Shown: positions 20,634 to 43,100, counted from the first letter of the stretch. The stretch is DNA of 64,000 nt from Thainema sp. (GCA_052168235.1 JBQLZK010000025.1:25594-89593); one strand, 5' to 3'. Numbers and translations are program-made. Notes: generated by a model not told the origin, from the sequence alone.

Positions 20634-20636
20634 AAA

Positions 20637-24363: not shown

Positions 24364-24455
24364 TAGACTTTATTGGAAATAAAGTTTTTGGGGTTGGAAA
24401 TTGTTTTGTAGCGCGGCTCCGCCGCGCTACAAAACAATTTCCGATAAGGTCTAAT
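24361..24455. mobile_element. 95-bp MITE-like element, copy 1
   Basis: TIR TAGACTTTATTGGAAAT / ATTTCCGATAAGGTCTA with internal hairpin; near-identical copy at 63695-63789. Confidence 0.85.
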
Positions 24456-24506
24456 ATCCAGACTGGATATAAAACAGCCTATGGAATTGGACGTTGCTTA
24501 ATCTGG

Positions 24507-24552
24507 GGATGAATGGTGATGTGGGACGGTGCTCCCACATCACCATTCATCC
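24507..24552. repeat. Perfect inverted repeat (20-bp arms) at the CHAT gene stop
   Basis: GGATGAATGGTGATGTGGGA-cggtgc-TCCCACATCACCATTCATCC. Confidence 0.8.
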
Positions 24553-27500
24553 TAAAAATCAGCAATTTCTGGAGCTGAGGTACTCCCAATCTGAACGAAG
24601 GCAGCCCATACTGCTGGGTCAGGATAAACCTCACGGGTTGAAAGCATGGCTTGGCGAAGCGCTTGAGCGGTATCTAAACCTTGGAGTCGCTGTTGGTGGA
24701 AGGCAATCATTAGCTCTGCTGTCGGAGCATCTGGCACTTGCCACAGGGAGACAACGACTCTGGGTACACCAGCCGCCATGAATGAGCGAGACAGACCAAT
24801 CACACCGTCACCCGTAATTCTGCCTCGTCCCGTGTCGCAAGCGCTCAGAATGACCAGATCAGCCTGCAATGGCAGATCAAGAATTTCAGCCGCTGTTAAA
24901 AAGCCGTCATTTCGGGCATCTGGAGCTAGAGCAACGGCTCCCTGTAGCGGTTGGGATTCATCAAACTGTCCATGAGTCGCTAAGTGAATGAGGCTGGCAG
25001 AAGAAAGCTGATCTTTGATTTGTGACTCTGTTGCGACATCACCGAGAAGAGGAGAGGTTGAGAGTAGCTCGGCAATCGACGCGGCTTCGGTCTCAGCACT
25101 GGGTAGAGGAGCATAGTTGCCAGGCATGGGGCTGGGATTGCCTACAATCAGGGCTTCTGTAGTGATAGCTCTTGAGTTGGTAGTCGTCTGATTAAGCAGT
25201 TCAAGGGCTTGGATAGAGGGAGTTATGGCAGGTGTGTATTGCTCAATTAAGTATCGTCCCTGATCGTCCTGGAGAGCAGCGAAGGGAACGAGGAAGAGAT
25301 GTTCTTGGGGCACGAAGATAACAGGGGCTGTTGGATCAGAGGGGAGCAAATCCGAGATCGGATCAATCAGCAGAGCGTGCAGTTGCTGAAGTGGGTTAGC
25401 TTTTGGTGTTGCTTCGTCCACTCGATAAATTTGATCCACGGGCAGCACGGGATTGGGCAATACAAATTCGGGATGCGTCACGGTGACCGTTTGGCCATCA
25501 GCAGACACTGAAACCACTTGGTAGGGAGCGATATTGGGCAAGTCTCCCTGGCGTCTGACAAAGTCTCCTGGGCGAATGGGTGTACTTCTAGCGGCATCGG
25601 CCACTATACCAATGCCGCGATTGTTGGCCACAGCGGTATCTAAGCTGCGACCCGTGAGCGCTAAGCGCGCCTCTGTGACGACACTTTGGACAGAGCTGGC
25701 AGAAAGCGAATCGCGTAGACTGACTTGCCGGAACTGCACGGTGCCGTTGGGTTGCACAACCCAGATGTAGAGTCGGGCATCACGCGGTTCAATCGGATTT
25801 TGGACAGAAACCGCGTGGGGTGCTTCAGCGGCTTGGTCGCGAATAATGGAATATTCCACTAGAGTCGCGTTTTGAGAGCGAGAGATTTGCTGCATTTGGG
25901 CAAGCGTAGGAGAAGACAATTCGCCTGCCTGCCTCGGATCAAACTGCTCGCGGGCCAGCAATTCGACAAACGCACGAGCGCGGCCTCGTTCAGAGATTTC
26001 GAGAGCAGGTGCGATTTTACCCTGGGTGACGAGAACTTCCTGGAGATTGCGATAGGCGGCTAGTTGAGTTTCAAAGATAGATACCTTGAAGTCATTGTTG
26101 GTGCCTAATCCAGCGCGGAGGGATTCCCAGATCGCAACGGCACTGAACAGAGCCTGTTCGGCTTCCGGCAATCGTTCCAGATAGAGCAACGCATTACCCA
26201 GATTGGTGAGCGCGATCCCTTCGCCCAAGCTGGCTCCCAATTGGCGGACAATCGTCAGGCTCTCTTGACTGTAGCGATAGGCTTGCTCGTAGTTTTGCTG
26301 ATACGCATAGGCTGTACTGAGTCCCAGCAAAATCTGGGCCGTTTCTAGCTCGTTGTTTAAAGTGGTGGCGAGTGCCAGCCCGTTTTCGTAAGCTGCGATC
26401 GCATCTGCGAAATTGCCTTGAATGGCTAATGTGGCCCCCAGGTTGCCGTAGGCTTGCATTTCACCATAGGTATCGCTTGCCCCACGGGAAATGTCGAGAC
26501 TGGTTTTCTGATAGTCAGCGGCTTGAGCATAGTTTTTTTCGGCAAAGTAGGCGTTGCCCAAGTTGCGATAGGTGAGAGCTTTCCACTGAGGCGCAGTCTC
26601 AATCGGCATCACCTCTAAACTGCGTCGATAGAAATCAATGGCTGTGGCATAGTCTCCTAAGGCCGCATAGGCTGCCCCAATGCCACCCAAGGCAATCCCT
26701 TTTTGGGTGGGATCATTGATAGCCGTTGCTTTTTCGAGCTGCTGTTGATGTAAATCGAGCGCGGTTAGATAATCGCCCAGGACAAAGTATGAAATGGCCA
26801 GGTTGTTCAGAGAGTAGGCAACCCATTGCGAATTATTTTGGGCAGTAGCGGTGGCTAGGTTTCCTTCATAGCAATCAATCAGGCGCTGATAAACAGTTGA
26901 AGTGCGATCGCGGGCTGCTGTTGCTTGAATTTTTTCGGCTTCGGCCTGACAGTTCTTGAGTTGCTGATTGACGGTTGAGTTTGAGTTAGCTGTGGATTCC
27001 GTGGTCGGCTCTGTTGTCGCCTCTTCTGGACGTGTGGCAACAGAATCAGCTCCAGGCTCTCCGGTTGACGATTCCGCCTCACTGGCAGAGTCTTCCGCTA
27101 CATCTACCGAAGCAGAGGGGGAAGATTCTGCTGGTAACGTTCCAGCAGCCGTATCTTCTACAGAAGCGCTAGAGGAATCAGCAGAAGGATCTTCAGGCTG
27201 AGGCTCGGTCTGCGGATCAACTTGCGGATCAACCTGTGGATCAACCGGAGAATCATCAGGGGGTGGATCATCAGGCTCCTGTAGCTGGCCAAAATCCGCT
27301 GTTCCACCTGGATCTCCGGGTTGACCAAAATCGGGCGACGTTTCAATGGTAAATCCCGAACTCGGAAAGTTGGCGGCGTTCCCTCCACTGTTACCGCTAG
27401 AACCGTTTCCTGTCCCCGTAACCACTGTGGCTTCCACAATCAACCAGGACGGCTCCGGCAGCACCATGCCGAGAATACTTAGTTCTTCGAGTAGAGGTGA

Positions 27501-30224
27501 TTGGGCTACAGGCACTCCGCGCAAAGCGACTTGCTCTCGATTTGAGGGCAGAACCAGGGATAGGGGCGGAGTGGCTTCCAGCGTCAGAGCAGACGTGTCA
27601 GGGATTTCAGTTTCAGGTTTACCACCATTGCCATTACCGTTACCGTTGCCATTGCCGTTGCCGTTGCCATTACCGCCGTTCGAAGGAGCGATATCAATTG
27701 GAATTTGAACGGCTTCTGAACGCGACACACCATCGGTCGCCTGTAGCGTGAAAGCTGTGACCTCTCCGCTCATGCCTTCTAAAGGAGTGTATTGGAGTTG
27801 ATCCGTGGTAGCAACTTCATCTCCCGGTTCGATAGCTACTCCATTTCTCAGCAGAGTACCGTTGATTGAATTCACAATGAATGTCGTGTTATCGCTGTTG
27901 AGATCTGTGATTTCTGGATTCAGGTTGCCTAGTGTAAAAGATACGGGTTGGTCAATTCTGGTAGAGGGTAGTGGTTCAGTAACGGACAGCGTAGGTGAGG
28001 TATTAACTGAGGTGATGGTGATGTTAGGCGTGGGATTTGCGCTGCCGCCAGTGGCTAAGACTGGAAAGCTGCCGCTAGCGAGGACACTGTCGGCTGCGAT
28101 CGCACCTGCAGTACCGTTAGGGCTAGTGCTCCCAACCACCAACGGCACGTTGTTCGGTCCGCCATCATGTTGAATCGTAACCGTGCCGCCACCAAGATTG
28201 TCTACTGCGCGGATTGTGGTGTTGGGTGCAGAGGCGACTGAACTTGTTCCGCTCACCGTCCCGTTGGCAATAACCGTAACACTGCCTGCCGGGGCAACGC
28301 TAGCATTACTGCTGGCATCAATAGATTCGAACGCAACATTGCTATCTGAATTGATCGTGACTTGGCCGCCTGCTACAGAATTAAACGTCGTGTCGATATG
28401 GCCAATTTGAACATCTGCACCGGAAATGCTGACGTTTCCTCCTCCCGTTTCCAGTCGTGTACCTGGACTCGCGTTAACTAAACCGCTTCCATTACCATCA
28501 GAGTCTGCTGTTAAATTCACCGTGAGCGATCCGCCAGCGACAAACTCAATATTGTCATTTAAAGTAATGTCGTTGATGGCTGCTAATGAGAGCGTTGCAG
28601 CAGGCCCAGAGGCTTTTTGAATCGTGGCTCCGGCTTGCTGGGTAATGTTTCCGGCTTCAGTGCCGCTGCTGTTGGTGACAATTAAAACGTTGGTGCCACT
28701 GTTGAGCGCACTGTTAATGTTCGCGACCTCAATCACAGTTGAATTAATCGGCCCACCTCCACCAGAAACAATGGTAATATCCGTCGGATCGATCAGCCAG
28801 GTGCCGCCAACTCCATTAGGGGCGCTAGTATCGGGTGTGCGAGATAGATTGAGCCGAACACCAGCAGACGTTTCAATTAATCCACCATTGCCTGATAGAT
28901 CGCCGCCGCGTGCAGTTAACGAACCATTCACAGTGGCGGTCGTATCGGCCCAAACAACGATACTGCCCCCATTTTCAGAGCGCGTCGTGGCATTGGCTGA
29001 GACAACAGAAGCAGCATCAATTTGCGTTGTATTTGCGCGGGGTAAACTATTTCCTCCTTGGACATCACCGCCGATTCGCACGCTGCCGCCACCAAAGGTT
29101 CCTGAGGCATTCGCTTCAGCATTGAGTAGCGAAACTTGTTGTCCTAGCAGGTAGATTTGTCCGCCGCGATCGCCTTCAGTGGAAAGGGTTCCCGATGCGA
29201 TGACGCTGCCTAGTTCAATGGGAGCCGTTGCCGAGGTGGAAGCAAGTCGGATCGTGCCATCCGGGTCTTGAACCAGAGTCAGATTGTTGTCGGTAAGAGA
29301 GTTCCCGCCCGTTAGCAGTTCCGGTAGCGATAAGGGATCGAACGGTTGCTGACTGTTGGGGTTTACGGACGGTGTAATCTCCAGGCTAAGGAGCATATTC
29401 CCTTGGCTGAGGCGCACCCGATTTTCTCCCGGTACGGCGAGCAGCGTAATGGTGCCCTCGGGAGCAGTGAGATTGCCCAGACTCACCACTTCCCCGCCCA
29501 TCAGCGTTAGGTCTTGGCCTGTATCGACCGTCAAATTACCCAGATTCAGAATCGTTCCCGGTAGCTCACTGGTAAAGGCAAACTGATTCGGTGTTCCAGT
29601 CAGCGCCTGATATCCGGCTGGGTTCATGACATCCAACCAGGTATCGCCAAAGCCGATCTGATTGGCCGTCGTTGCTGTGAAAGCGCCATTGAGGTTGAGC
29701 GTAGCGTCCGGGCCAAAGATAATACCTGCCGGATTGATCAGATAAAGGTTGGCGTTGCCGCCGCTCACCTGGAGTAGACCGTTAATGATGGAGGCATTTC
29801 CCCCGTTGACGGTGCCCAGAATATTCTGAATTTCGGGAGCAGCGATGAAGTTAGCAATCTGGTCGGCACTGAGGCCAAATTCCTGGAAGCTGTGAAACAG
29901 GTTAGTGCCGTCACCGGAACGCTGCCCCTCAGTGATGTCAAGGCGGTTGCCAGTGGGAGTCACCACTGTCCCTGTGCCATCACTGCTGGGAACAATGGCT
30001 TGAGCAACAAGCTGATCTGGCGAGACTTGGACTGAGTGATTACGCCTGGTGCCCAAAAACTCTGGCTGTATCGATTCCGGTGAGGAGACAAGCTGAACTG
30101 CGATCGCACCTAATAGATCACCAGTTTCGGTTGTTTCAGCATAGGAAGCCGTGACAGGTTGCTGCGTCGGAGGCAGGCTAGGGGGGATGATGAGGACATG
30201 GGGGGGCAAGTGGGGAATGACCAT
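24552..30224 (-). CDS. Filamentous haemagglutinin (TPS) domain + Ig/cadherin-like + TPR + CHAT caspase-like protease
   Basis: NLFHSFQEFGL and LINPAGIIFG TPS motifs; GTWLIDP; TPRs (SLNNLA, ALTNLG); CHAT IHLATHG (His), VILSACDTG (Cys), SLWQVPD, WAAF. Confidence 0.92.
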   Translation of the reverse strand: MVIPHLPPHVLIIPPSLPPTQQPVTASYAETTETGDLLGAIAVQLVSSPESIQPEFLGTRRNHSVQVSPDQLVAQAIVPSSDGTGTVVTPTGNRLDITEGQRSGDGTNLFHSFQEFGLSADQIANFIAAPEIQNILGTVNGGNASIINGLLQVSGGNANLYLINPAGIIFGPDATLNLNGAFTATTANQIGFGDTWLDVMNPAGYQALTGTPNQFAFTSELPGTILNLGNLTVDTGQDLTLMGGEVVSLGNLTAPEGTITLLAVPGENRVRLSQGNMLLSLEITPSVNPNSQQPFDPLSLPELLTGGNSLTDNNLTLVQDPDGTIRLASTSATAPIELGSVIASGTLSTEGDRGGQIYLLGQQVSLLNAEANASGTFGGGSVRIGGDVQGGNSLPRANTTQIDAASVVSANATTRSENGGSIVVWADTTATVNGSLTARGGDLSGNGGLIETSAGVRLNLSRTPDTSAPNGVGGTWLIDPTDITIVSGGGGPINSTVIEVANINSALNSGTNVLIVTNSSGTEAGNITQQAGATIQKASGPAATLSLAAINDITLNDNIEFVAGGSLTVNLTADSDGNGSGLVNASPGTRLETGGGNVSISGADVQIGHIDTTFNSVAGGQVTINSDSNVAFESIDASSNASVAPAGSVTVIANGTVSGTSSVASAPNTTIRAVDNLGGGTVTIQHDGGPNNVPLVVGSTSPNGTAGAIAADSVLASGSFPVLATGGSANPTPNITITSVNTSPTLSVTEPLPSTRIDQPVSFTLGNLNPEITDLNSDNTTFIVNSINGTLLRNGVAIEPGDEVATTDQLQYTPLEGMSGEVTAFTLQATDGVSRSEAVQIPIDIAPSNGGNGNGNGNGNGNGNGNGGKPETEIPDTSALTLEATPPLSLVLPSNREQVALRGVPVAQSPLLEELSILGMVLPEPSWLIVEATVVTGTGNGSSGNSGGNAANFPSSGFTIETSPDFGQPGDPGGTADFGQLQEPDDPPPDDSPVDPQVDPQVDPQTEPQPEDPSADSSSASVEDTAAGTLPAESSPSASVDVAEDSASEAESSTGEPGADSVATRPEEATTEPTTESTANSNSTVNQQLKNCQAEAEKIQATAARDRTSTVYQRLIDCYEGNLATATAQNNSQWVAYSLNNLAISYFVLGDYLTALDLHQQQLEKATAINDPTQKGIALGGIGAAYAALGDYATAIDFYRRSLEVMPIETAPQWKALTYRNLGNAYFAEKNYAQAADYQKTSLDISRGASDTYGEMQAYGNLGATLAIQGNFADAIAAYENGLALATTLNNELETAQILLGLSTAYAYQQNYEQAYRYSQESLTIVRQLGASLGEGIALTNLGNALLYLERLPEAEQALFSAVAIWESLRAGLGTNNDFKVSIFETQLAAYRNLQEVLVTQGKIAPALEISERGRARAFVELLAREQFDPRQAGELSSPTLAQMQQISRSQNATLVEYSIIRDQAAEAPHAVSVQNPIEPRDARLYIWVVQPNGTVQFRQVSLRDSLSASSVQSVVTEARLALTGRSLDTAVANNRGIGIVADAARSTPIRPGDFVRRQGDLPNIAPYQVVSVSADGQTVTVTHPEFVLPNPVLPVDQIYRVDEATPKANPLQQLHALLIDPISDLLPSDPTAPVIFVPQEHLFLVPFAALQDDQGRYLIEQYTPAITPSIQALELLNQTTTNSRAITTEALIVGNPSPMPGNYAPLPSAETEAASIAELLSTSPLLGDVATESQIKDQLSSASLIHLATHGQFDESQPLQGAVALAPDARNDGFLTAAEILDLPLQADLVILSACDTGRGRITGDGVIGLSRSFMAAGVPRVVVSLWQVPDAPTAELMIAFHQQRLQGLDTAQALRQAMLSTREVYPDPAVWAAFVQIGSTSAPEIADF
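27621..27680 (-). repeat. Coding (Asn-Gly)n low-complexity linker
   Basis: Degenerate hexamer repeat encoding NGGNGNGNGNGNGNGNGNGG. Confidence 0.9.
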
Positions 30225-30262
30225 GACCTAATACTCCAATCAAAACTAGAGGGCAATTGGTG

Positions 30263-31003
30263 TTATTCGACAGGTGTTGGCTCAGTTTCAGCAACCTGGC
30301 AGCAGTCAGTTAGCGGCTGGTTCACCAAGTCACCGAGCTGAACGAAATCATGTTCAAGTAAGCTGGCCCAGACTTCCAGCAGCGCTTCGGACGAGGGATT
30401 GCTCAGTCGCAGGTCGCCCAATTCAGTGAGGGTGTCGTACCACAAACCATCGCTAGCTAAAAGGTCAATCCGCTCTTGGGGAGAGGCATTGGCCAGTTGT
30501 TCAGCAAATTCTGGAGAAGGAGATCGCCGCACTACTATGCCGCTTGTCCAGGGATCAGCCTCGTCTTCACTGGGACAATCAACCGACACTGTCCAACGAT
30601 AGGGTTCACCGACAGTTAGTTCTGGAACGTCCACGGGAGCAGGCAAACGGCTGATGCCGACCTGGGCAATATCAGCATAAGTAGCTTGATACAATACCTG
30701 ATCAGTGCTGGCCTGTGTGAGCGTCAGATGAAGGGTGCGATTCGGTTCAGACACATACACCCAGAACGTGGGTTGCGGCTGTAGCGTTTCGCCCCAGTGG
30801 GTTTGGGTGGGTTCCAAAACAACAATGCCGCAGCCACGACTGCCCGCATCGCGTACCGTGCTACTGCGACCGGGAGCACCGCGATTGGGTGGATTATAGG
30901 GAACCGCATTTGCCACCGATAGAAAACTAAAGAGGCTAACTGCGATCGCACTCACACCTCCGCAAACCATCCGATACAAGCCTTTATCAATCCGTTTCAT
31001 CAA
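30263..31003 (-). CDS. DUF928 domain exported protein
   Basis: Signal peptide (VANA); PPNRGAP..AGSRG-C, PTFWVYV, YRWTVSVDC, GLWYDTL, W.SLL. Confidence 0.88.
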   Translation of the reverse strand: MMKRIDKGLYRMVCGGVSAIAVSLFSFLSVANAVPYNPPNRGAPGRSSTVRDAGSRGCGIVVLEPTQTHWGETLQPQPTFWVYVSEPNRTLHLTLTQASTDQVLYQATYADIAQVGISRLPAPVDVPELTVGEPYRWTVSVDCPSEDEADPWTSGIVVRRSPSPEFAEQLANASPQERIDLLASDGLWYDTLTELGDLRLSNPSSEALLEVWASLLEHDFVQLGDLVNQPLTDCCQVAETEPTPVE

Positions 31004-33405
31004 CGTAACCTCCTACGAACGTCCGTTTGAGCCAGCAGGCGGGCAGCGATCAGCGTGCCGCCGCTGGTGCTGATCAGACCAATCGCTGCTGGGACGAGTG
31101 GCACCCATAAGCCTAAATTCAGCAACCCCCATGCCAAGCCATATAGCCCTAACATAGCCAGCCCGGAAGCCAAGGCTGTGAAGCTAAGGCGCTGGCATCG
31201 CCAGCCGATTAAACCGCCGATGCCAGCCCAGCCCACCATCCACAGCGTTTCAGCCCATTCTGGCCAGGTGCTGATCGGCGCTCGACCATCCAACGCGGCT
31301 GCGAGCAGTTGATTAATCATTTGAGCCTGTAGGATGACGCCGGGAATGCGCTCACGCGGCCATGCCTGAGCGCCTGCGGGCGTTGTGAAGTAATCGGTGG
31401 GATTGGAAACGGGTGCTGACATGCCGATTAACACCACATAATGCTGCAAACTGCTGATCGGGTTGCCGTTACGGTCTTGCAACGAGAAATTGTCGCTCAG
31501 GACATCGGACAGCGTCACCCGCTGCATAAACCGATCCGGGTCAGCGTAATTCAGCAGAACCTGAAAGCCCCAGTGATCTAAGCTGTGATACGGCCCGGAG
31601 TTGGCTGCCAAAGGCACGAGCTGAGCTTTGCCGAGCTGTAGGTGATCGTTGGGCAGGTTTTCCGGTTGGATATTCGCAGTCGTATAGAGGTGTTGGATGG
31701 CCAGTAGCGCACTGAGGGAAAAGCTAGTGGCACAGGGGTCGTCCGTCTCCGGCTCCATAAACAGCAACTGGCGGCGCATGATGCCATCGTGATCCTCCAA
31801 GACGTTGCTAAAGCCAAGCCGATCGCTGGGCAGTTGGGGCGGTGGAGCAATACCGCTTTGGGCATCGTTCCGCGCAATTTGGACGCTACACAAACCGACT
31901 AGATTGTCTTGCTCAGCCAACTGAGTTTGTAGAGAGCTGTTTGGATCGATGCGATCGCGAAAAATATCCAATCCAATCACGCTGGGATTGTACGGCTCCA
32001 GCCGATCAATTGCTGCCGCCAGGACATCATCGGGCAGGGGATAGCCATAGCGGTTCACGTCATCTTCCGTTGCTTCGATCACCAGAATTCGTTGGGGAGT
32101 AACTTGGGGCAATCGCTGTTGCAGTAAGCGATCATAAGTCCGCAGTTCCCAAGCCTGAAAACCGCCCATGCTTCGGATCACCAGGATTAAGGCTGATACC
32201 GCTAGGCTAGAGAACAGCGCCAGTCGCCATTGAGGTTGAGGCAACAACGGTTCAGCGGGGGGTGGGGGCATTGCTGGCGCTGCTTCAGCTCGTTGCAGCT
32301 CTGCCCAAGTGGGTGGGGCATCAGGTGCCGTTTGGTACAGTACAGGCAACCAACTGGCGCAGGGAAACTCGCTTTCCATTCCTTGCAGCCGCTCCCGTGC
32401 CTGACGCAACGCGAGAGGTAAGGACTGACCCGCCGCATAGGCAGGCAAAAGATAGGTGAGAAAGAGCTGAGCAATCCGATCCGGTACGGGCTGCCGCATG
32501 ACGATGATCTGGGGCAGATTCAGTGGCTCTAGGTCATGGGCGAGTCCCAGTCCGTCGCAGGAGTTAAATATGGCCAGTTTCAAACCACGGGCAATGGCCC
32601 GCCGTAAGCCGTACTTCAGCTCTTCCAGGGTTAGACTTTCCTGAGGATTGAGAAAAATCCGTCCAGTCACCTCAGAACTGCTACGAATATTCTCACTAGC
32701 ACTAGCACTAGCACTGTCGCTGTGTCCGGCAAAGAACAGAATATCCCAGGGGCATTCCCAGAGCTGATCGGTAATCTCCTGCCGCTGCGGTTCCACCAGG
32801 AAGGTCACGTTGGCATTTGGTAACGAGGAAAGCAAAGCGCGATCGCAACTAATATCAATCCCCGCACTATGACCCAAAATCGCCAGGATATTGACCTGAT
32901 TAGAGGCCACAGGTGCGATCGCAGATTGCCGTTTGAAGTGGGGTGCACTCAGAGTCACCTCGGCGTGCGTGTAGCGGTCTAGGAATTCCCAGAGGTGCCA
33001 GGGAAGCTGGTGCAAAGCGGGATTAGCGGTGCGAATCACCAACCGGATGCTGTCGTTGGGATGCAGTTCTTCCCGCAGCAGACGATCAATGGCACGAAAG
33101 GTCTCTGCACTCAGCCAGCGATTAAATTGCTGTCGCAGTGTCTGAGCCATGCGTTCACAGGCTTTGACCTGCTGAATTGAGCCGATATAGACGATTTCTT
33201 TGGGCCGAATTCGATTCGGTGCATCGAGCTGACGATAAACCTGTTGCCATGCATTGAGCCGCTCTTGCAAATCGGGATCGGCGGGCAGAGCACCCGTCAT
33301 TACGGCATCGGGGCGCTGTCCGTCAGCTCCAATTTCCATCGTGACCCGGAAACCTTGGCTAGCAAGGTCGCCATCGAAAGTCAGGGTAACGAGCTGGTGA
33401 CGCAT
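31000..33405 (-). CDS. CHAT-CHASE2 membrane protein (N-terminal caspase-like domain, TM, CHASE2, 3 TM)
   Basis: LPWHLW, FFAGHS (His), IFNSCDG (Cys), IVMRQPV; CHASE2 ELRTYD, IGLDIFRD, GFSNV..D.DGIMRR, PGVILQAQM. Confidence 0.9.
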   Translation of the reverse strand: MRHQLVTLTFDGDLASQGFRVTMEIGADGQRPDAVMTGALPADPDLQERLNAWQQVYRQLDAPNRIRPKEIVYIGSIQQVKACERMAQTLRQQFNRWLSAETFRAIDRLLREELHPNDSIRLVIRTANPALHQLPWHLWEFLDRYTHAEVTLSAPHFKRQSAIAPVASNQVNILAILGHSAGIDISCDRALLSSLPNANVTFLVEPQRQEITDQLWECPWDILFFAGHSDSASASASENIRSSSEVTGRIFLNPQESLTLEELKYGLRRAIARGLKLAIFNSCDGLGLAHDLEPLNLPQIIVMRQPVPDRIAQLFLTYLLPAYAAGQSLPLALRQARERLQGMESEFPCASWLPVLYQTAPDAPPTWAELQRAEAAPAMPPPPAEPLLPQPQWRLALFSSLAVSALILVIRSMGGFQAWELRTYDRLLQQRLPQVTPQRILVIEATEDDVNRYGYPLPDDVLAAAIDRLEPYNPSVIGLDIFRDRIDPNSSLQTQLAEQDNLVGLCSVQIARNDAQSGIAPPPQLPSDRLGFSNVLEDHDGIMRRQLLFMEPETDDPCATSFSLSALLAIQHLYTTANIQPENLPNDHLQLGKAQLVPLAANSGPYHSLDHWGFQVLLNYADPDRFMQRVTLSDVLSDNFSLQDRNGNPISSLQHYVVLIGMSAPVSNPTDYFTTPAGAQAWPRERIPGVILQAQMINQLLAAALDGRAPISTWPEWAETLWMVGWAGIGGLIGWRCQRLSFTALASGLAMLGLYGLAWGLLNLGLWVPLVPAAIGLISTSGGTLIAARLLAQTDVRRRLR

Positions 33406-33488
33406 GGGGGCTGTTTAGGGTTACAACTTGAAGGGGAAAGATTATCCAGTGATACTGACTCCGGCGAGAAAGAATCCAAATATCGGTT

Positions 33489-33590
33489 GTGTATCAAGGC
33501 CGTTGAGATCCCCCTAAATCCCCCTTAATAAGAGGGACTTTGAGCCAATTCCCCCCTTCCTAAGGGGGACTAGGGGGGATCTTCTACACA
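33489..33590. mobile_element. MITE-like element with GATCCCCC...GGGGGATC core
   Basis: Core 33507-33581 with two CCCC/GGGG hairpins; TGTGTA / TACACA ends; related core at 2626-2741. Confidence 0.75.
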
Positions 33591-33628
33591 TGCTCAACAT
33601 CACAGTCAGCAACTTTTCAAACATCCTT

Positions 33629-34594
33629 TTACACCTGAAACACTTCGGTCAGGATGCGATCGCGCCAGCTAACCTGAACGCTGAATCGCTCACCCGGTTC
33701 GGCCTCAAACTTCAGTTGAATCGCCTCTGTCTGGCGGGCTTCGGCCTGCATCACGACTGCATTTGACTCATCCAGCACCCTGAGCTGTAACGCACTGGGC
33801 AGATGAAGCTGGTCACCTGCCGAGCGAATCTGCACCCAAATCTCAATATTGTCCTGATCCTGGGGAATCAGTCCCACCAAAAGATTGACCGTCGTGGCTG
33901 CCGCTCCCTCTCCCAGCCGCAGCGGCTTAACCTGGCCAATTTCCGGGACAGGCTGGGGTTCCGTCTCCATTGATTGAGATGAGCCGCGAAAGGCAAACGA
34001 CGGCGACGGCACAGCCAGTTCAGTCAAGGCATCGGATAGAGCTTGCCAACCCGCTGTCGTTACGTCCTGCAACCAGCGACTTAAATAAACGGGCATGGGT
34101 TCCGCAGCGCACTGCTCCAGATAAGCACCCAAGTCTGCCAAGGGGCGCAGCTCTGATAGCGGGACGGAGAGCGCATCACCTGTAAGCGCGGGTAAGGTAT
34201 CGATAAATCCCAGCAGCGTCGCCTGTCGCAAGGATGCGTCAAGTTGAACACCGATATAGCCCACGCGATCGCAGATCACGTCAGCCGGAATTGCGATCGC
34301 AGTTTCAGCGGGCAACACAACTCGACATTCCAGTCGCCCCACCTGCGTGACCAGCAAATCGGCAACATCCAGCAGTGTTTGTTGGGCTGGATCATGGCTG
34401 TAGCTGCGCTCCAGGTCAACATCGTAGCCCAGCGTATCCAGATAAGTTGCCACCGCATAAACGGCCAGGGTATTGAGATAAACGCGCTTTTGCACAGCGG
34501 GCATGGAATGGCGCTGCTGAAATCTCTTAGCCTGACTATGAGCTGTCAACGCTAATGGAATAGTAACGGTAGATAAGTCGCGGATGTCGCTCAT
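33629..34594 (-). CDS. DUF1822 family protein
   Basis: KRVYLNTLAVYAV..YL, GRLECR, DRVGYIGVQ, LSRWL, FAFRG, PGERFSVQV..TEVF. Confidence 0.88.
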   Translation of the reverse strand: MSDIRDLSTVTIPLALTAHSQAKRFQQRHSMPAVQKRVYLNTLAVYAVATYLDTLGYDVDLERSYSHDPAQQTLLDVADLLVTQVGRLECRVVLPAETAIAIPADVICDRVGYIGVQLDASLRQATLLGFIDTLPALTGDALSVPLSELRPLADLGAYLEQCAAEPMPVYLSRWLQDVTTAGWQALSDALTELAVPSPSFAFRGSSQSMETEPQPVPEIGQVKPLRLGEGAAATTVNLLVGLIPQDQDNIEIWVQIRSAGDQLHLPSALQLRVLDESNAVVMQAEARQTEAIQLKFEAEPGERFSVQVSWRDRILTEVFQV

Positions 34595-34635
34595 GGTACT
34601 CGTCTCAGGTGTACGACATGGAAAAAGGCAGTGGG

Positions 34636-35541
34636 CTAGAGCAAGCGCTGAAATTGGGGGGCAAACTTATCGCAGCATCGCTGAAAAAAGCTACTCAGAG
34701 TGGGGATCTTGATGTCGAGATCTGTGGCAATGTCGTCCCAGCTTTGGCCTGCAAATCGAGCAAGAGCAATGACTTGAAAGCTAGCGTCGGGTCGATTGCG
34801 AATATGGGTGGCTTGAAACACTCCTGCTGGATCGGTGGCAATATGCTGGCGCACCTCATCGGCCAGCGAAGATGATTCGGGTGTAGGAGCTGCGATCGCA
34901 TCTAAATCATTCAGCGAGGGCAACTCCTGCGCATCTTGCTCATTGAAGTCGCGGCGACACTCAATAATCTGGCGATCGAGGCGGAAGTTAACCCAGTTCA
35001 TAAACTTTTGCGCTGTACCGCGCTCCGGATCATAGGTGTCGATTTTACGACAAACATAGGTCAGAGTTTGGTTGAGCGCCTCCTCATAGAGCAAGTCATA
35101 AAAAGGAGGCGAGAATTTGCTGCGGTGCGGATGAGCTAACCGCCCCGATCGCCGAATTGCCTCAATTAATTGGGTTAGGGCATGTTGCCGCAGCGGACTG
35201 CGGGCAGGATGTCGCTGAGCCTCTAAAGCCAACTGCTTGAGCTGATCATCGCTGAGAGCAGCTCGCAGCGCTTCTGCTTGGACAGCAGCGCTCCAGTCCT
35301 GAACGGCATCGCGATCGCGCTGATAGCGACCAACCCCGACTGATACAGCGATCAATAGCTGTTCACGTATCTGATCGCGCAGAGCCTGATAGATCTCATG
35401 ATTGGGATCGTCCTTGGGAGGACGGCCCAATTTTTGCGATCGCATCAGCACGGCTACGATTTCCGACAGCGCTTGAGCGCGACTGCTTTCGTCAGTCGCG
35501 TGTTGGGCTTGATGCAGATATTGCTCCAGTTCTGATTCCAT
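34636..35541 (-). CDS. Sigma-70-like (ECF/HetZ-like) DNA-binding protein
   Basis: Region-2-like EALNQTLTYVCRKIDTYDPERG..FMNWVNFRL; C-terminal HTH GQSWDDIATDLDIKIPTLSSFFQR. Confidence 0.78.
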   Translation of the reverse strand: MESELEQYLHQAQHATDESSRAQALSEIVAVLMRSQKLGRPPKDDPNHEIYQALRDQIREQLLIAVSVGVGRYQRDRDAVQDWSAAVQAEALRAALSDDQLKQLALEAQRHPARSPLRQHALTQLIEAIRRSGRLAHPHRSKFSPPFYDLLYEEALNQTLTYVCRKIDTYDPERGTAQKFMNWVNFRLDRQIIECRRDFNEQDAQELPSLNDLDAIAAPTPESSSLADEVRQHIATDPAGVFQATHIRNRPDASFQVIALARFAGQSWDDIATDLDIKIPTLSSFFQRCCDKFAPQFQRLL

Positions 35542-35582
35542 ACGCGCAAACCTGAGGTTGTACTGAATCCGTCCGTGAAAGA

Positions 35583-35673
35583 CTCACATCTTGCACCAAC
35601 TCAGAAGGGTTTATTTTGCCGTCGCGATGGCGGCAAAATAATCGCTTCGGGTTCTCAATGTGCAAGGTGCCAG
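35583..35673. mobile_element. MITE-like element, CTCACATCTTGCAC family
   Basis: CTCACATCTTGCAC ... GTGCAAGGTGCCAG ends; inner hairpin TTATTTTGCCG..CGGCAAAATAA. Confidence 0.7.
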
Positions 35674-36024
35674 ACGTGAAAAGACGAACTCAGCCTGACA
35701 CTCACCGGAAAAAGCCCAGGGAATGCCGTTTTCAGAGTCTACAATGCTGATCGACCCGAATCCGGGCACATCATACATTAAGTAATACTGACGGATTAGG
35801 ATTGCACTCTGCCGAAAACCTGAATTTTGGTTTTCAACTAGAACAGAATCTGAGTTTGACCATGACTCAGTTTCATTTTCTAGATTTTATGCAAATTACC
35901 CACAGGTGTCATAGACAAAATGTATGTTTCTGTGGCAAGTCCATCGTTAGCTCACTCACAATGAAATCGCTGATTGATTGAGACGGCTGAACTTAGGATC
36001 GTGAAAAATAAGTTCGATATTGGT

Positions 36025-36089
36025 TAGGGGCGGGTTTTGCCGTTAACTCTATGGCAAGGTAAAGATTGGTCTACTAAACCCGCCCCTAC
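36025..36089. repeat. REP-like inverted pair with spacer
   Basis: TAGGGGCGGGTTT ... AAACCCGCCCCTAC. Confidence 0.75.
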
Positions 36090-36260
36090 AGTTTGCCAAT
36101 TTATCAAATCTGCACTCCTTAAGACAAAAAATGCAGATTTGCATAATTCTCCTTTTTTCTCATGAGTGAAGGACAGAGAGCAACATTTAAGCACATATCA
36201 ACTTGGTTTCCCGACCATTTGTTTCTCTACAAAAGCTCACTGTTAAGGAGATTGAACTTC

Positions 36261-36884: not shown

Positions 36885-37001
36885 GGAGAATTCAGATTGC
36901 TTGTCGTACTTGTTCTTTAAGCAGCTTGTTCGATTAGTAATCTGACTTATATGGTTGCAGCATTTGCAACTACAGCTTTCGATTTGGTGAATGAACTAAT
37001 A

Positions 37002-37040: not shown

Positions 37041-37194
37041 GTTGCTTTATTCATCGGGACTAAAAAACAAATTTGCTCAAAAGCAACAATTTGCATAAAA
37101 CGCTCCGAAACTCCATGAGTCACGGTCAAAGAGAACGCTATGCCGTAATTCTCTAGTGTTTTTTGATTAGTTTTCTCAAACTTAGGAGCCTGTC

Positions 37195-40100
37195 ATGTCC
37201 CCGACGTCCACCATTGCGATTCCTCTAGTCAGCGAAATTGGTAGCCTTGATCATTTGATGCAAAGCAACCTCAACGCTGGGTTGTCCCGTGCCCTGGACA
37301 CGCTGCAAAACTGGGCACAAACGCATTCGTTTGCAGATTTGCTTGTTAGTTTTGATCAAGGCGATGTGACAGATAGCGCTGCCTTGCAGTCACTCCATCA
37401 GGCTTGGCAGCAGGGTGACTTCTCTCAACTGCCAACCATTCAAATCTTGTCCGCCGAGGAGCTTCAGGGTGCGCAGGGCGCTTTCTCCAGCAGCACCCAA
37501 ACGATCTACCTCTCCTCAACGCTGATTGAGAGCGCCCAGCCATCTTCGGATGCACTGGCGCAGGTGTTCCTAGAAGAAATTGGCCACTTTGTGGATGCTC
37601 AGGTTAATCTGACGGATTCTCCGGGCGATGAGGGAGCTGTGTTTGCCGCGCAGGTGCAGGACATCCAGATCAGTGACGCTTGGCTAACCGCTCTCCAGTC
37701 AGAAAATGACAGTCTCACCTTACATCTCAACGGACAGACCATCGAAGCAGAAGCGATGGTGCCCTATGCTGGCGACAATCTTGACCAGTTTCAGGCTGGT
37801 TTGGATGATTTCCTCACGACGTTGGAAGACACAATCGCTCAAGTGATTGCCGGACAAGAGCTACCGCTGATTGGTTCTGCCCTAGAAACGGTTGGAGGAA
37901 ACGCTCAGACTTTTGTGGCAGACATGCGAACTGCGATCGCAGATCAACTGGCTAGCCTGCCCGAATTGACGACTCAAGCTCTGGAAGATGCCCTGAATCA
38001 GGCGTTGGGGCCAGGAGGACTGGGTATTTTGGATGCCCTGACGGTAAATGAAACGGCTGATAATTTGCAGTTTGACATTACCCTGAGCCGTGACCTAGTT
38101 GAACTCGGCAGCGATCAGTTTGATTTGTCGCTGGGTGATACGGGATTAAGTTTGAATGTCAATGGGAATACTCAACTGGATGTCGATCTCGATTTGCATC
38201 TGTTGCTGGGCTTGAACAGCGAAGGGTTCTATGTGGATACAGCGGTGGAGGATGAGCTTGGTATTAACCTCACTGCCACCATTCCTGATCTGGAAGCCAC
38301 GGGTACGCTTGGATTTCTACAGGTAGATGTAGAAGACAACGGCAGCAATCTGAGCAGCGGCATTACCGTTGATCTGCAAGACTCTGCCGATGCGGGCACT
38401 GACCTCTCCCTGGCAGAATTTGTCAACCTCGCCAATACTTTGGAAGCCAGTATTAACGGTAGCGCAACCTTCAATGCCAATGTCTCTTCCGGTACCACAA
38501 TCTCGGCTCTGCCCAGTATTGGCACGAATCTGGTGCTGGATTGGCAATTTCTAGATGCCGATCTGAATAGTTTCCAAACTGCGGCACCAACCATTGCCAT
38601 GAACGGCGTCAGCCTGGATGTCGGTTCCTTCTTTGGTGGTTTTGTTGGCCCCATTTTCGAAGGCATTACCACGGCATTAGAACCTGTGATGCCCTTGGTC
38701 GAGCTGCTACAAACCGAAATCCCCATCCTTGACAAGCGCATTATTGATGTAGCCAAGGCCCTAGCAGAGGCAGGACTAGGCGACTTTAGTCCCGAAACAA
38801 TTGAATTTATTGATTATGTCGGCTACATTGCCCAAATCATTGACTTGATTGGCAGTCTGTCGGTTGAGGGCAGCACGATTACCCTGGGTGACTTCAACGT
38901 TGTAGATGGTGACTTGCAGTCGCTCGGCGGCGGTCTTACCCCCCTTGAGCAACTGAGCGGCATCAATGAGTCCACCAGCGAATTTAGCACCATTATTAAT
39001 GATAATGTGCGGTTCGAGTTTCCCCTACTGACTCAACCAGAGAGCTTAATCGGTCTGTTCCTGGGGCAAAACGCCGATATTTTCCGTCTAGAGCTGCCTA
39101 CCATTGGGTTTGGCGTACAGTACGAAACGCAGATTCCCATCTTTGGCCCGATTAACCTGACTGTAGGTGGAGCACTGGGAGCGGCAGCCAATCTGAGCTT
39201 TGGCTTTGACACCTACGGTATCGCCCAGTTTGCAGAAGGAGGCTTCACCGATCCTGCTTTGATTGCTCAAGGCTTCTTTGTGGGTAGTCCGCTCAATCCC
39301 GGCACGCCGCCTGCTCCTATCGATCCAAATGAACTCTTTACCTTCGGCTTGGGAACGGGTGTCAGTGCGGGTGTCGGAATTGATTTAGGACTGATAAGTA
39401 CCGATATTACTGCAGGACTGGTAGCCCAGCTCTTCCTCAATTTGAATGGTGATGATGAAGGCAAAGTGCGGATTGAAGACTTCGAGGTACCGGCCTGCTT
39501 GTTGGAAGCGCTGGGTAAACTGGATGCCGTTGTAGCTGCGAAACTTCAGATTGGGTTTGGCGCATTCAGCATTCGCAAGCGCATTGAACTTGTTCGCGAA
39601 ACGCTGCTCGATTTCCGAGCTGGCTGCTCCGGTTCGACAGAAGACCATCAGCAGGCGACTGTGGGCGATGATGGCACCGCTACGCTCAGCGTCGGTGAGG
39701 ATGCGGCGAACCTGACGGATATTGACGTAGAAGGCATCGAAGCCGATGAGGTCGTCACCGTGACCCATATTTCAGGCGTAGCGGGTGACGAAACCATTGC
39801 GGTAGAGGCCTACGGTGCAAGCTGGACGTACGAAAACGTCAGCAGTATCTTTGCTGATGCAGGCGATGGCAACGACATTATTGAGCTGGTTGGTGTACGT
39901 TCCGCAGCTCACCTGATTGGTGGTGCCGGAGATGATCAACTGCTGGGCGGCCAAAATAACGATCTGCTGGAAGGCGGCACCGATTCTGATTATCTTTCGG
40001 GTGGAGCAGGCGATGATGAACTCTATGGTGGTGACGGTGACGACTTTTTGGAAGGAGGAGCGGGTAACGACCTTCTGGATGGAGGCGAGGGCACCGATGG

Positions 40101-43100
40101 CGTCAGCTATTCGGAAGCGACCAGCGGTGTGCAAATTGATTTACCCGATGATGTGGTGATTGACGGTGACGGCACCCAAGACACCCTGATCAGCATTGAG
40201 CAGTTTGAGCTGTCCAACCACGACGATACCTTTATCGGCAGCAATAGCGGCAACATTGTCGATGGTTTGGCAGGCGATGATGTGATTAATGGCGGTGCTG
40301 GCGATGACTTCTTGATTGGCGGTGCTGGAGCCGACATCATTGATGGCGGTGGCGGAGAAGATGCCACCAGCTATCTGGAATCGAAGGCTGGCGTTCAAAT
40401 TGACCTGGAAACGGGGGACGTTTTCAGCGGTGGGGGCAGCGATGCCGATGGTGACGTGCTCAACAATATGGAGCATGTGCAGGGCACGTATCAGGATGAT
40501 ATCCTGCGCGGCAACAGTGCAGAAAATATCCTGGTAGGAGCAGGCGGTGATGATACCCTGGAAGGCCGTGGCAATGCCGATACTCTCTACGGCGATTCCG
40601 GCAATGATACAGCCGAGTACATCGACTCGCCCACGGGGGTGACGGTTTCCCTGGTCGCCGAGTCGGAAGGCTCAGAGTTTAGTGTTGTCGGTCAGGGTGG
40701 TCATGCCCAAGGCGATCGCTTAGCAATGGCTACAGATCATGAAGGCAATATTAGCGATCGCAACTCTATCGAAAACCTCACGGGTTCGCTGCACAACGAT
40801 AGTCTGACGGGTGACGGTGGCCGCAACACGCTCAGCGGCTTAGCTGGCAACGATACGCTCAATGGTGGTGAAGGCAATGATCATCTGATCGGTGGGGCCG
40901 GAGCCGACCATCATAATGGTGGCGGCGGCCTGGACTGGGCGGACTACAGCGACTCCAATGCGGGCGTAACTGTTAACCTAACGTTCAACGTTGGCCTCGG
41001 TGGTCATGCCCAAGGCGACACGTTTGCCAGCGTGGAAAATCTCAAAGGCTCTAATTGGGCAGACACGCTGCGCGGCAACGGAGTCAACAACGACATCAAT
41101 CCTGGTTTAAGCAGTATTGGCCCTGGCGTTGATTTTGTGCATGGTGGCGGTGAAACCGATACGATGGGCGATCGCCTCATCCTGGACTACAGCTCCTCCG
41201 GTTCTAGTCTGCAAGGGGGCTATGACTATGTAGCTGGCTCCAGCGATTCCGGTGAATTCATTGGCAATGTGGAGTTTGACGACATCGAGCGGCTCCAGAT
41301 TGTGGGGTCTTACCTGAATGACACCATTCGCGGTGGCGGCGGTGACGACTACATCAATGGTGGAGCGGGTAACGACACCATCTTGGGTGGCCAAGGCCGC
41401 AATTTCCTCTACGGCGACGACGGCAACGATACGATTACCAACCTGAATAACGCCTTCGGTGAAGTCTTCTACAACCCTGCCAATGACGAACCCCAAATTT
41501 TCTGGGTTGGCGGTGGTGCAGGTATTGATACATTCTCTGGCAATTTCCGCGATCGCGCCCAAGATATCGTTCTGACCAGTCTGAATCCTGACCAAGAGAA
41601 CCCTGAGCAGTTCTTCACGCTCGGTGACGGCTCTGTTATTCATCAGTTTGAGCGATTCCAGGATATTCAAACTGGCTCTGGTGACGACCAGCTCACTCAG
41701 CTAGGCCGGGTCAATAATGACTTCCGCACCGGGGCAGGCGATGATATGGTCAATACCGGATTGGGACTGGATTATGCCGATGGTGGCATCGATGGCTTCA
41801 GCAGTGGTGAACACGTTATTTATGGCGATGACCTGCTGATTGTGGACTATTCTGAGGGCGATATCGGTGGCGGAATCGTCAGCGAAGTTGGTGGTGATCC
41901 CTTTGAAACCAGCCGCTATTCCCGCAATGCTGCCGATGGCACGACTCTTCTAGACGAAGTGGAATTTGTCAACTTTGAGCGGGTTCATCTCGATGGCACA
42001 CAGCACAGCGACGCTATTGTGGGACTGATTGGAGCTGACGAGCTGCGCGGTCACGATGGCAATGATTCGCTGGTGGGTCGAAGTGGCCACGATCATATCT
42101 GGGGTGGTGCGGGTGATGACAGTATTCTGGGTGGCAGCGGCAATGATGAACTGCATGGCGGTAGCGGTAATGACGTCATCATTGATGACCTGAATGAAGA
42201 TGATGACGAAGGTGGTCAAGATCAGCTCTTTGGCGATGATGGCGACGACTGGCTGCTCGGCGGTAACGGAAATGATGCACTGGAAGGAGGAAATGGCAAC
42301 GACATCCTGATTGGCGGTGCCCAGAACGATACACTTAACGGCGGTGCTGGCAACGACATCCTGATTGGGATTAACTTTGGGCAGTCTCCTTTCCCTGCTG
42401 ATCCTGAAATCGACACGATGACGGGCGGTCAAGGAGCGGATCAGTTCTGGTTAGGGGATGGTTTATTTTCATACTACGATGATGGCCAGCTCTTTTCAGG
42501 CGGTAGCCAGAATCAGGCCGTTATCACCGATTTCACCCTGCAAGAGGGAGACGTGATTTTCCTGCATGGAGCTGCAAGTGACTATACGCTACAGGAATCA
42601 AACGGCTCAACTCGTATTCTCCGCAATGGCTTCATTCCAGAATTGATTGGCACCGTTCAGGGCGTGACGGGCCTAGACCTGAACGACGGTGCGTTCCAGT
42701 ATTTCGATGATCAGGCTAGTGAAGAGAACATGTCTCTGCTGCTACCAGCGGTACAGCAAATCCAGGCCGCTAACATGAAGCTGACAGCCGAACCAGATAC
42801 GCAAGCAGCGTTACTCCTGCCTGCAATTCAGGCTGCGCGGGAGGCTGCAAGCAGCAGCAGTTCCGCTCCATCACTAGAGCAAGGTTTAGCTGCTCCTAGC
42901 CAAGACATCAGCTCTGTTCAATCTCCTCACGGTAGCCAAGTTGCGCCATCCCAGACCCCAGTGTTGCTGACAGCGGCTACTGAAGCTGAAGCAGCAAGCA
43001 ACGCTAATTCACTCAATGTGCCTGCTGCTCAAGCTCAGCAAGCCGGACTGGTGCAAGACGATAGCGCCTTTAGTATTACCCAGCAAAACAATCCCTATGT

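Follow-up and report, generated by a model that had tools for sequence, protein, structure and literature searches.

What might a caspase-like protease carried on a membrane sensor control when its gene stands beside that of a sigma-like protein, and through which partner would it act? The question is raised by a stretch of 64,000 nucleotides from Thainema sp. (GCA_052168235.1 JBQLZK010000025.1:25594-89593), here called the window, whose minus strand carries five open reading frames (ORFs) in a row. They encode a sigma-like protein, a DUF1822 protein, a CHAT-CHASE2 protein, a DUF928 protein and a protein that joins a two-partner secretion (TPS) domain of the TpsA type to tetratricopeptide repeats (TPR) and a second CHAT domain. 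An earlier reading made from the sequence alone (the original prediction) had taken these five co-oriented genes for one signalling cascade, and our ORF calls and Pfam and NCBIfam searches bear out its outer coordinates and its domains (Table 1).

We read the cluster as a protease-controlled switch in which an anti-sigma factor restrains a sigma factor of the extracytoplasmic function (ECF) type that drives genes for secreted proteins, and we give this reading a probability of about 0.5. Through its N-terminal alpha+beta domain, the cytoplasmic DUF1822 protein would bind across the sigma2- and sigma4-like parts of the sigma factor and keep it inactive. CHASE2 would sense some periplasmic cue, probably together with the secreted DUF928 protein as a dedicated partner; the cytoplasmic CHAT domain fused to it would then be activated and cut DUF1822 after a conserved Phe-Arg pair in an exposed interdomain linker. 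With this cut DUF1822 would be lost and the sigma factor released, free to transcribe the operon that encodes it and, nearby, genes for secreted or surface proteins of very large size. Its outputs in the window would be the co-transcribed TPS-TPR-CHAT protein and a divergently encoded RTX protein, and in the Nostocales they would be TpsA genes. The evidence lies in the domain identities and conserved gene order, a predicted complex of the sigma-like and DUF1822 proteins, the conservation of the Phe-Arg pair, and a promoter-like motif shared by genes of the sigma-like, TPS and RTX classes.

Table 1. Features of the cluster and its surroundings, in positions of the window
Feature	Coordinates	Strand	Regions and basis
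Divergent ECF-type sigma factor (putative), 301 aa	34636..35541	-	N-terminal helical extension ~1-140, sigma2-like ~145-200, disordered linker 203-219, sigma4-like ~226-300; AlphaFold2 (AF2), Foldseek, sub-threshold Pfam, family profile
DUF1822 protein, predicted sigma-binding partner and candidate anti-sigma factor, 321 aa	33629..34594	-	Pfam E 9.5e-58, AF2, complex model
FAFRG codons (residues 200-204 of DUF1822), Phe202-Arg203 candidate protease cleavage site	33983..33997	-	conservation, disorder
Membrane sensor-protease, 801 aa	31000..33405	-	EACC2-like 1-~105, CHAT 110-368 (His228, Cys283), transmembrane 395-413, CHASE2 405-732, C-terminal transmembrane bundle ~715-790; Pfam, hydropathy, conservation
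DUF928 protein, 246 aa	30263..31003	-	Pfam E 8.4e-40; signal-like N-terminus 12-34 (..VANA/VP)
TPS (TpsA-type), long repeat region, TPR and CHAT protein, 1890 aa	24552..30224	-	His1751, Cys1796; Pfam, NCBIfam
Promoter-like two-block motif GCATAAAA-N15-TGAG	35866..35892	-	~325 nt upstream of the sigma-like start codon
Second motif copy GCATAAAA-N15-TGAG(TCAYGGTCAAA)	37093..37119	+	76 nt upstream of the RTX gene start
RTX (HemolysinCabind) protein, 2643 aa, transcribed divergently from the cluster	37195..45126	+	Pfam E 6.7e-50

Gene order and the sigma-like protein

One genome per species was scanned with a DUF1822 alignment. The scan gave at least 580 pattern matches, and the best 80 loci were kept; their ORFs were searched with the window proteins (phmmer) and with profiles of the sigma-like and DUF1822 proteins at E <=1e-3. 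A sigma-like gene lies directly upstream of DUF1822 on the same strand in all 70 loci with at least 900 nt upstream, and beside it in 76 of the 80 when cut contigs are counted. Downstream of DUF1822, 63 of the 75 loci with at least 1500 nt on that side have a gene for a constant N-terminal domain (EACC2) followed by CHAT, and CHASE2 is present in 49 of the 59 complete CHAT genes. DUF928 comes after 46 of the 47 CHASE2 forms with room for it (at L065, the exception, a kinase is inserted) and after none of the eight other forms. Beyond DUF928, a TPS gene, a TPR-CHAT gene or both start within 3.5 kb, on either strand, in 40 of 42 loci; the two are fused like the window's in L001, L002, L004, L011, L028 and L041, or are split. 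Pfam checks on subsets of the loci agreed with these labels. The gene order, for which the original prediction had proposed such a survey, is thus strongly conserved among related cyanobacterial loci, and the five-gene arrangement is far beyond a chance neighbourhood.

The module is widespread: the species-representative genomes have at least 564 confirmed DUF1822 loci, the sigma-like family has 789 cluster representatives (E <=1e-3), and DUF1822 genes stand on 21 cyanobacterial plasmid records, eight of them typed conjugative. Named homologues of the cluster genes are cyanobacterial, with Leptolyngbya-like taxa closest, and all named loci among the 80 are from cyanobacteria except L079, labelled Gracilibacteria; several others are labelled "uncultured bacterium". 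The contig of L079 (JAAUUT010000133.1, Candidatus Gracilibacteria by its label) carries a cyanobacterial-type sigma-DUF1822-CHAT cluster with a frame-broken CHAT gene and is probably mis-binned. A full seven-gene set running in one direction is found on a conjugative Nostoc plasmid (L081, NZ_CP151101.1 85779-104705), where the annotated order is hypothetical protein (the sigma-like one), DUF1822, CHASE2, DUF928, "S-layer family protein", ShlB/FhaC/HecB and CHAT. This plasmid cluster adjoins a divergent pair of genes for an HlyD protein and a peptidase-ABC exporter.

The identity of the first gene product depends on several distant similarities. The 301-aa protein has no Pfam or NCBIfam match at cut-off and a weak NCBIfam match to the ECF factor SigK (E 0.0017, residues 153-284). 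In its AF2 model (predicted local distance difference test score, pLDDT, 87.6) there are helices only, arranged in two bundles with a disordered linker (203-219) between them. The best Foldseek match of this model is E. coli sigmaE (1or7_A, E 0.043, probability 0.99), followed by many ECF sigma factors including SigL, SigH and AlgU. Sub-threshold matches to Sigma70_r2 and Sigma70_r4_2 occur in 18 and 20 of 44 family members (best r4_2 0.002) and, in a second set, in 17 of 65 (best 1.4e-5) and 25 of 65 (best 3.9e-7). Against sequences of the PDB, a profile of 65 short family members matched SigK 4nqw (E 0.0016) and RpoE 2q1z (E 0.0045), both over region 2; a broader profile of this kind was needed, as a narrower one gave no match at E <=10. 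The two-bundle architecture, together with the DUF1822 gene adjoining it in all 70 loci, corresponds to the two-domain layout, lacking regions 1.1 and 3, and the co-transcribed regulator of ECF sigma factors. These weak though convergent signals from sequence and model point to a divergent ECF-type sigma factor, which supports in silico the "sigma-like" label of the original prediction and agrees with the assignment of Kaur et al. (eLife 2021, PMC8195603).

Most representatives of the sigma-like family are about 205-230 aa long and match only positions ~99-300 of the profile. A core of about 200 aa is therefore common to the family, and the first ~100 residues of the window protein are a lineage extension. 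Fusion proteins of the family were checked for a DUF1822 fusion, which would have corroborated the pairing, and none was found among them. One of these fusions, P0394 (1153 aa), has a weak Macro match, a GUN4 domain and a C-terminal sigma-like domain, that is, a small-molecule-binding module fused to the sigma-like family; six others have no Pfam match.

DUF1822 as a predicted sigma-binding partner and candidate substrate

In the AF2 model of DUF1822 (pLDDT 82), an alpha+beta domain at the N-terminus (1-170) is connected through a disordered linker (179-215) to a beta-sandwich at the C-terminus (219-320). Foldseek returned only Ig-like or beta-sandwich matches for it, and a structure-atlas search with the N-terminal domain gave no usable match. 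On this model DUF1822 is not a TPR protein, in contrast to its description as TPR by Kaur et al. (PMC8195603). A comparison with known anti-sigma families returned DUF1822 itself in Pfam and nothing in NCBIfam, and the literature that we found on the functions of DUF1822 and DUF928 is limited to passing mentions. By hydropathy neither DUF1822 nor the sigma-like protein has a hydrophobic segment.

The original prediction had suggested modelling the sigma:DUF1822 pair, and binding across both sigma domains is indeed predicted. The complex score is 0.85 (0.86, 0.85 and 0.85 in three runs) against 0.32 for the best control; 116 of 157 solved complexes attained this mark, as did 2 of 215 mismatched pairs, figures that are approximate because the alignments were our own. 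At least 90% of contacts recur across the runs, and the partner pLDDT is 80. On DUF1822 the interface comprises residues 6-160, the N-terminal domain, with the beta-sandwich outside it. On the sigma-like protein it comprises residues 150-165 and 195-199, the linker (203-218), the sigma4-like helices (225-301) and parts of the N-terminal extension; the helix at 150-165 aligns, in the family profile, to region 2 of SigK. The N-terminal domain of DUF1822 is thus predicted to reach over both the sigma2-like and the sigma4-like part, in the manner of a bound anti-sigma factor, and we infer that the binding is inhibitory.

A positive role for DUF1822 has to be weighed at this point. It could serve the sigma factor as chaperone or co-activator, or tether it to the membrane protease, while CHAT would remove the N-terminal extension of the sigma factor as in pro-sigma processing. 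The helical extension of the window protein (~100-140 aa) does touch DUF1822 in the model (residues 35-43 and 113-126), and the score, a measure of model confidence, is compatible with inhibition or activation alike and cannot tell an inhibitor from a co-factor. Against this stand the inconstancy of the extension, which the short family members lack, and the sigma N-terminus itself, in which no conserved Arg-containing disordered stretch was seen; pLDDT falls below 50 only in the linker between sigma2 and sigma4. The predicted interface, moreover, takes in the helix of region 2 and those of sigma4, a pattern known from sigma/anti-sigma pairs. We regard this positive role, with processing of the sigma factor, as highly unlikely.

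If DUF1822 is an inhibitor, as we prefer to think, a protease could act on its linker. Phe202-Arg203 is at least 95% conserved (80 sequences) within the pattern A-F-x-F-R-[G/S], and the rest of the linker varies in length and sequence. The pair lies in a stretch of pLDDT below 50 (residues 193-215) and outside the predicted sigma interface. The F-R-[G/S] pattern resembles the site at which HetF cuts PatU3 (Y-R/S, the slash marking the cut) and fits the Arg specificity of the HetF CHAT domain (PMC9457339). We therefore take Phe202-Arg203 as the candidate cleavage site.

The sensor-protease, DUF928 and the TPS-TPR-CHAT protein

In the 801-aa protein, Pfam finds CHAT at residues 110-368 (E 1.4e-11, 44.8 bits, cut-off 24 bits) and CHASE2 (PF05226) at 405-732 (E 8.8e-55, 186.5 bits). 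The 1890-aa protein has CHAT at 1611-1881 (E 1e-75, 255.3 bits), TPR, and the TPS domain (PF05860, residues 80-288, E 4.2e-42; TIGR01901, E 1.9e-21). The catalytic dyads named in the original prediction are present in both: FFAGHS (224-229) and NSCDG (281-285) in the former, HLATHG (1747-1752) and LSACDTG (1793-1799) in the latter, with His and Cys at least 95% conserved in 61 relatives of the former and 20 of the latter. Both proteins pass the PF12770 cut-off with a conserved dyad and are putative proteases. The NCBIfam HetF model matches the CHAT-CHASE2 protein at E 0.0027 with 16 bits, against a cut-off of 1200, and its N-terminal 402 aa gave a chance-level match only (E 0.25) in a search of PDB sequences. 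According to Pfam and hydropathy, the CHASE2 domain lies between an N-terminal transmembrane helix and a C-terminal bundle, the position that defines such sensors. The hydropathy profile fits EACC2-CHAT in the cytoplasm and CHASE2 outside; the original prediction had placed CHAT on the inner side and CHASE2 and DUF928 on the outer one, and the profile fits this placement as a whole.

Kaur, Iyer, Burroughs and Aravind (eLife 2021, PMC8195603) described, computationally, EACC2-caspase-sensor proteins encoded beside ECF sigma and DUF1822 genes, with CHASE2 named among the sensors. Their systems share with ours the constant N-terminal domain, the caspase or CHAT domain, the variable sensor and the adjacent ECF sigma and DUF1822 genes; by these features and by its gene order the window cluster is, at the level of sequence, an EACC2-caspase system. 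The constant domain was identified by similarity among the surveyed loci, not against the alignment of Kaur et al., and is present in 66 of 67 CHAT genes beside DUF1822, whichever sensor follows. Pfam on subsets of the loci found, besides plain CHASE2, nSTAND1 with WD40, pentapeptide repeats, VHL-beta, and kinase with CHASE2, in line with the sensor list of Kaur et al. (STAND, kinase, repeats, CHASE2). The original prediction had held that no mechanism was described for the module, which was too strong, since Kaur et al. proposed sensor-induced autopeptidase activation feeding a sigma factor (PMC8195603).

That proposal leads to a different reading, in which the system serves conflict or cell death: CHAT would cleave itself and so free or activate the EACC2 effector, and the sigma factor and DUF1822 would form an accessory transcriptional arm with DUF1822 as adaptor, not substrate. 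The autopeptidase activation put forward by Kaur et al. (PMC8195603) speaks for it, as does the constancy of the N-terminal domain whatever the sensor (CHASE2, nSTAND1-WD40, kinase, VHL or pentapeptide), and a parallel is offered by EACC1, which is cleaved by its caspase-like partner and forms pores (PMC12642450). The sigma-DUF1822 pair, however, is the most constant part of the module (70 of 70 loci) and persists without a CHAT gene in 12 of 75 loci, and the predicted complex and the conserved, exposed Phe-Arg pair would be left unexplained. PADLOC 2.0, run on the five proteins, gave no defence-system match beyond a generic TPR model for the 1890-aa protein. We consider an EACC2 effector system of this kind unlikely. 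No cas-family Pfam match was found among window ORFs of at least 150 aa, and no CRISPR array search was run.

Six loci (L059, L064, L067, L074, L075 and L076) have pentapeptide repeats ahead of EACC2-CHAT and no CHASE2; in these variants a small type IV pilin-like gene (Pilin_GH and N_methyl, three verified) replaces DUF928.

The DUF928 gene overlaps that of the sensor-protease. The original prediction had called the two ATGA-coupled; the overlap is real, and the literal ATGA is not there. The junction reads TTGATGA, in which the TGA stop of CHASE2 (31002-31000) overlaps the ATG of DUF928 (31000-30998) by one base. An alternative TTG start of DUF928 would overlap the stop by four bases, and AGGAGG stands just upstream. 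After the signal, and before the domain, DUF928 proteins share an Arg-rich motif, G-x-P-x-x-R-x-x-G-G-x-R-x-x-C (residues 40-58 in the window). L006 carries a second pair (2599-7181, minus strand) in which an nSTAND1 NTPase-CHASE2 fusion stands beside another DUF928 gene; DUF928 therefore tracks CHASE2 rather than CHAT. DUF928 is likely a periplasmic partner of CHASE2.

The TPS-TPR-CHAT gene starts 38 nt past the DUF928 stop. We considered the possibility that it is an unrelated neighbour and rejected it on the recurrence of TPS or TPR-CHAT genes after DUF928 (40 of 42 loci). The CHAT part of its product matches DdvA (8rot_B) at E 2.3e-7. About residues 950-970 (~27330-27390) there is a run of Gly-Asn dipeptide repeats, NGGNGNGNGNGNGNGNGNGG, and a long low-complexity linker rich in Pro, Asp, Ser and Glu lies between this run and the TPR region. 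Hydropathy shows no hydrophobic N-terminal segment in the window protein or its closest fused relatives. At the start of the TPS proteins of the window (30224-29990, minus strand) and of L001, L002, L011, L038, L041 and L049 stands a conserved Pro-rich stretch, with no hydrophobic signal peptide. A classic signal peptide is present in most of the other TpsA proteins of the surveyed loci, and where TPR-CHAT proteins are encoded separately and have a complete N-terminus, most of them carry a hydrophobic anchor or signal there.

The original prediction had supposed that this CHAT is exported and could be an input of the cascade. An exported TPS-TPR-CHAT protein might process DUF928 or another envelope protein outside the cytoplasm, with CHASE2 sensing the product, so that a two-tier relay with positive feedback would result. 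The recurrence of TPS and TPR-CHAT genes beyond DUF928 would suit such a relay, as would the anchors and signals of the separate TPR-CHAT proteins, the Arg-rich motif at the mature N-terminus of DUF928, and TpsB (ShlB/POTRA) genes at the far end of the cluster, found as an ORF family in 10 loci (two members verified by Pfam) and also in L081; DdvA, moreover, shows that a periplasmic TPR-CHAT can head a sigma pathway (PMC11506125). Export is not borne out in the window itself, where the protein has no recognisable signal peptide and Pfam finds no ShlB/POTRA (TpsB) ORF. DUF928 accompanies CHASE2, not CHAT, as L006 shows, and the motif upstream of TpsA genes (below) marks TpsA as a regulated target. 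This input role is distinctly unlikely in our view.

It could be extended to a full circuit, to which we allow the same slim chance. In that circuit a secreted or anchored TPR-CHAT, with TpsA and TpsB, would process the Arg-rich N-terminus of DUF928 and so act on CHASE2, CHAT would cut DUF1822 at Phe-Arg, and the sigma factor would drive TpsA, RTX and the relay genes. Multicellular cyanobacteria would thereby have a circuit that amplifies itself and senses surfaces or neighbours, rather than a system of death or defence.

A shared promoter-like motif and relations to known systems

A dyad search of the regions upstream of the sigma-like genes gave TTT(T/C)GCATAAA(A)-N16/17-YGAG(A/T), a pattern tightened after a looser form produced false matches inside DUF1822 coding sequence. 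The form GCATAAA-N16/17-YGAG has 48 sites on both strands of 1.37 Mb (the 80 loci and positions 14001-46000 of the window), against a mean of 2.4 in 20 block shuffles. Upstream of sigma-like genes stand 21 of the 48, upstream of TPS genes seven (L009, L015 twice, L022, L030 twice and L036), and upstream of RTX genes five (the window, L001 by similarity only, L038, L041 and L049). The other 15 comprise sites upstream of genes for a CBM_4_9 protein (L005), a PPC-domain protein (L073), a WD40 protein (L008) and DAHP synthase (L015), sites before proteins without a Pfam match (L003, L004, L014, L052 and, twice, L079), and five without an ORF of at least 150 aa nearby. Counted by gene, 19 of 73 sigma genes have the exact motif within 300 nt upstream, and the number rises to 34 of 73 if one mismatch is tolerated (shuffles give a mean of 0.43 and a maximum of 2). 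The motif precedes 7 of 45 TPS genes and none of 49 DUF928 genes, 67 CHAT genes (exact form) or 13 TPR-CHAT genes.

The 64-kb window holds exactly two copies, against 0.13 expected. Both have the common element GCATAAAA-N15-TGAGTCAYGGTCAAA, and the bases that follow, TCAYGGTCAAA, are shared as well. One copy precedes the sigma-like gene and the other the divergent RTX gene, which is a candidate member of the sigma regulon. RTX genes are found in matching position in L001, L038, L041 and L049. A distribution of this kind would be expected of an ECF sigma factor that regulates itself and has targets close by. The shared motif points to TPS and RTX genes as outputs of the sigma factor, whether in place of a role as inputs or in addition to one. 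L018 and L027, in which sigma-DUF1822 is followed directly by TPS genes without CHAT-CHASE2, fit TPS genes as outputs. A generic scan for sigma-70 promoters and terminators over 24000-37400 was uninformative (6 against 9.2 and 12 against 14.2 in shuffles).

Several points weigh against the switch as we have drawn it. All Foldseek E-values of the sigma-like model exceed 0.01, and the sigma assignment as a whole rests on signals that converge but are weak. No anti-sigma factor is among the Foldseek matches of the DUF1822 model, whose fold is like that of no known anti-sigma factor, the helical bundle of the anti-sigma domain (ASD) included. A cut in the linker alone would leave the sigma-binding N-terminal domain, so that a further degradation step must be assumed. 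The Phe-Arg pair is also kept in the 12 of 75 loci that have no adjacent CHAT gene, and it could be a docking motif instead of a cut site. Close relatives are over-represented among the 80 loci behind these counts, and the loci are not independent in phylogeny. Even with one mismatch allowed, 39 of 73 sigma-upstream regions lack the motif; its exact form is absent from the plasmid locus L081, and the copy before the window's sigma-like gene is ~325 nt away from the start codon. A -10-like TAAAAT of the sigma-70 type overlaps the first block of the motif, and sites in the Nostocales have a third block, TTGTAA, 16 nt further upstream. Given this overlap, the third block and the absence from many loci, the motif stays a candidate promoter of this sigma factor, and another sigma factor or regulator may read it instead.

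In the RseA-sigmaE and FecR-FecI systems, the anti-sigma factor is proteolysed upon an envelope signal; this sets free an ECF sigma factor that regulates itself and often has its targets next door. The anti-sigma factor of these classical systems spans the membrane, has the ASD fold and is cut by site-1 and site-2 proteases. The logic that we propose is the same, except that the protein to be cut would be soluble and of new fold, and the protease caspase-like and fused to the sensor.

Closer to the window in its domains is DdvA-DdvS of Myxococcus xanthus, in which a CHAT-family domain is likewise tied to ECF sigma control across the membrane. DdvA is a single protein in which a transmembrane helix links a zinc-binding anti-sigma domain in the cytoplasm to a TPR-CHAT in the periplasm, and it is subject to RseP-type intramembrane proteolysis (PMC11506125). 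Unlike in DdvA, the CHAT encoded near the window's sigma gene is predicted to be cytoplasmic and is fused to CHASE2, and the candidate anti-sigma factor is separate, soluble and of another fold. In the type III-E Craspase (Cas7-11 with the TPR-CHAT protein Csx29, which cleaves Csx30) and in CalpL-CalpT-CalpS, a signal-activated protease acts on the controller of an ECF-like sigma factor, as we propose here. Both are associated with CRISPR, with RNA or cyclic oligoadenylate as the trigger, whereas the sensor in the window is an extracytoplasmic CHASE2, and CalpL is a Lon protease, not CHAT. HetF of Anabaena is a membrane-associated CHAT protease that cuts PatU3 once, after Arg117 in N-Y-R/S, and belongs to a family that prefers Arg (PMC9457339); its substrate and pathway differ from those proposed here, and no sigma factor takes part in the HetF case. 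The module thus differs from its analogues in having a soluble sigma partner of new fold, a putatively cytoplasmic CHAT fused to CHASE2, and links to DUF928 and to two-partner and RTX secreted proteins.

The study of Kaur et al. is the only published account of the module that we found, with no experimental one beside it, in a search outside which subscription-only papers and the supplements of that study lay. Its text does not name DUF928, and its passages on DUF1822, CHASE2, EACC2 and ECF sigma factors mention neither TPS genes nor a promoter motif; the passages that propose autopeptidase activation assign no anti-sigma role (PMC8195603). What we add to it is the evidence for a divergent sigma factor, the non-TPR fold of DUF1822, the complex model, the Phe-Arg pair and the shared motif. 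What the many cyanobacterial CHAT and orthocaspase proteases do has long been in question, and HetF is described as the only one with a mapped substrate so far (PMC9457339). Our analysis names a circuit open to experiment, with a binding pair, Arg203 of DUF1822, Cys283 of CHAT, and a motif with candidate targets. Were it true, it would provide a new anti-sigma fold and a caspase-like route to sigma release outside CRISPR contexts, and would link envelope sensing to the production of giant secreted proteins.

Two further features adjoin the cluster. Between the two divergent motif copies lies a 240-aa ORF (36162-36884, plus strand) that has no Pfam match. Directly downstream of the cluster, the minus strand (17569-23410) encodes an ABC exporter (ABC_membrane and ABC_tran) and three glycosyltransferases, two of them GT4 and the third family 28-like; together these may form an exopolysaccharide or export unit.

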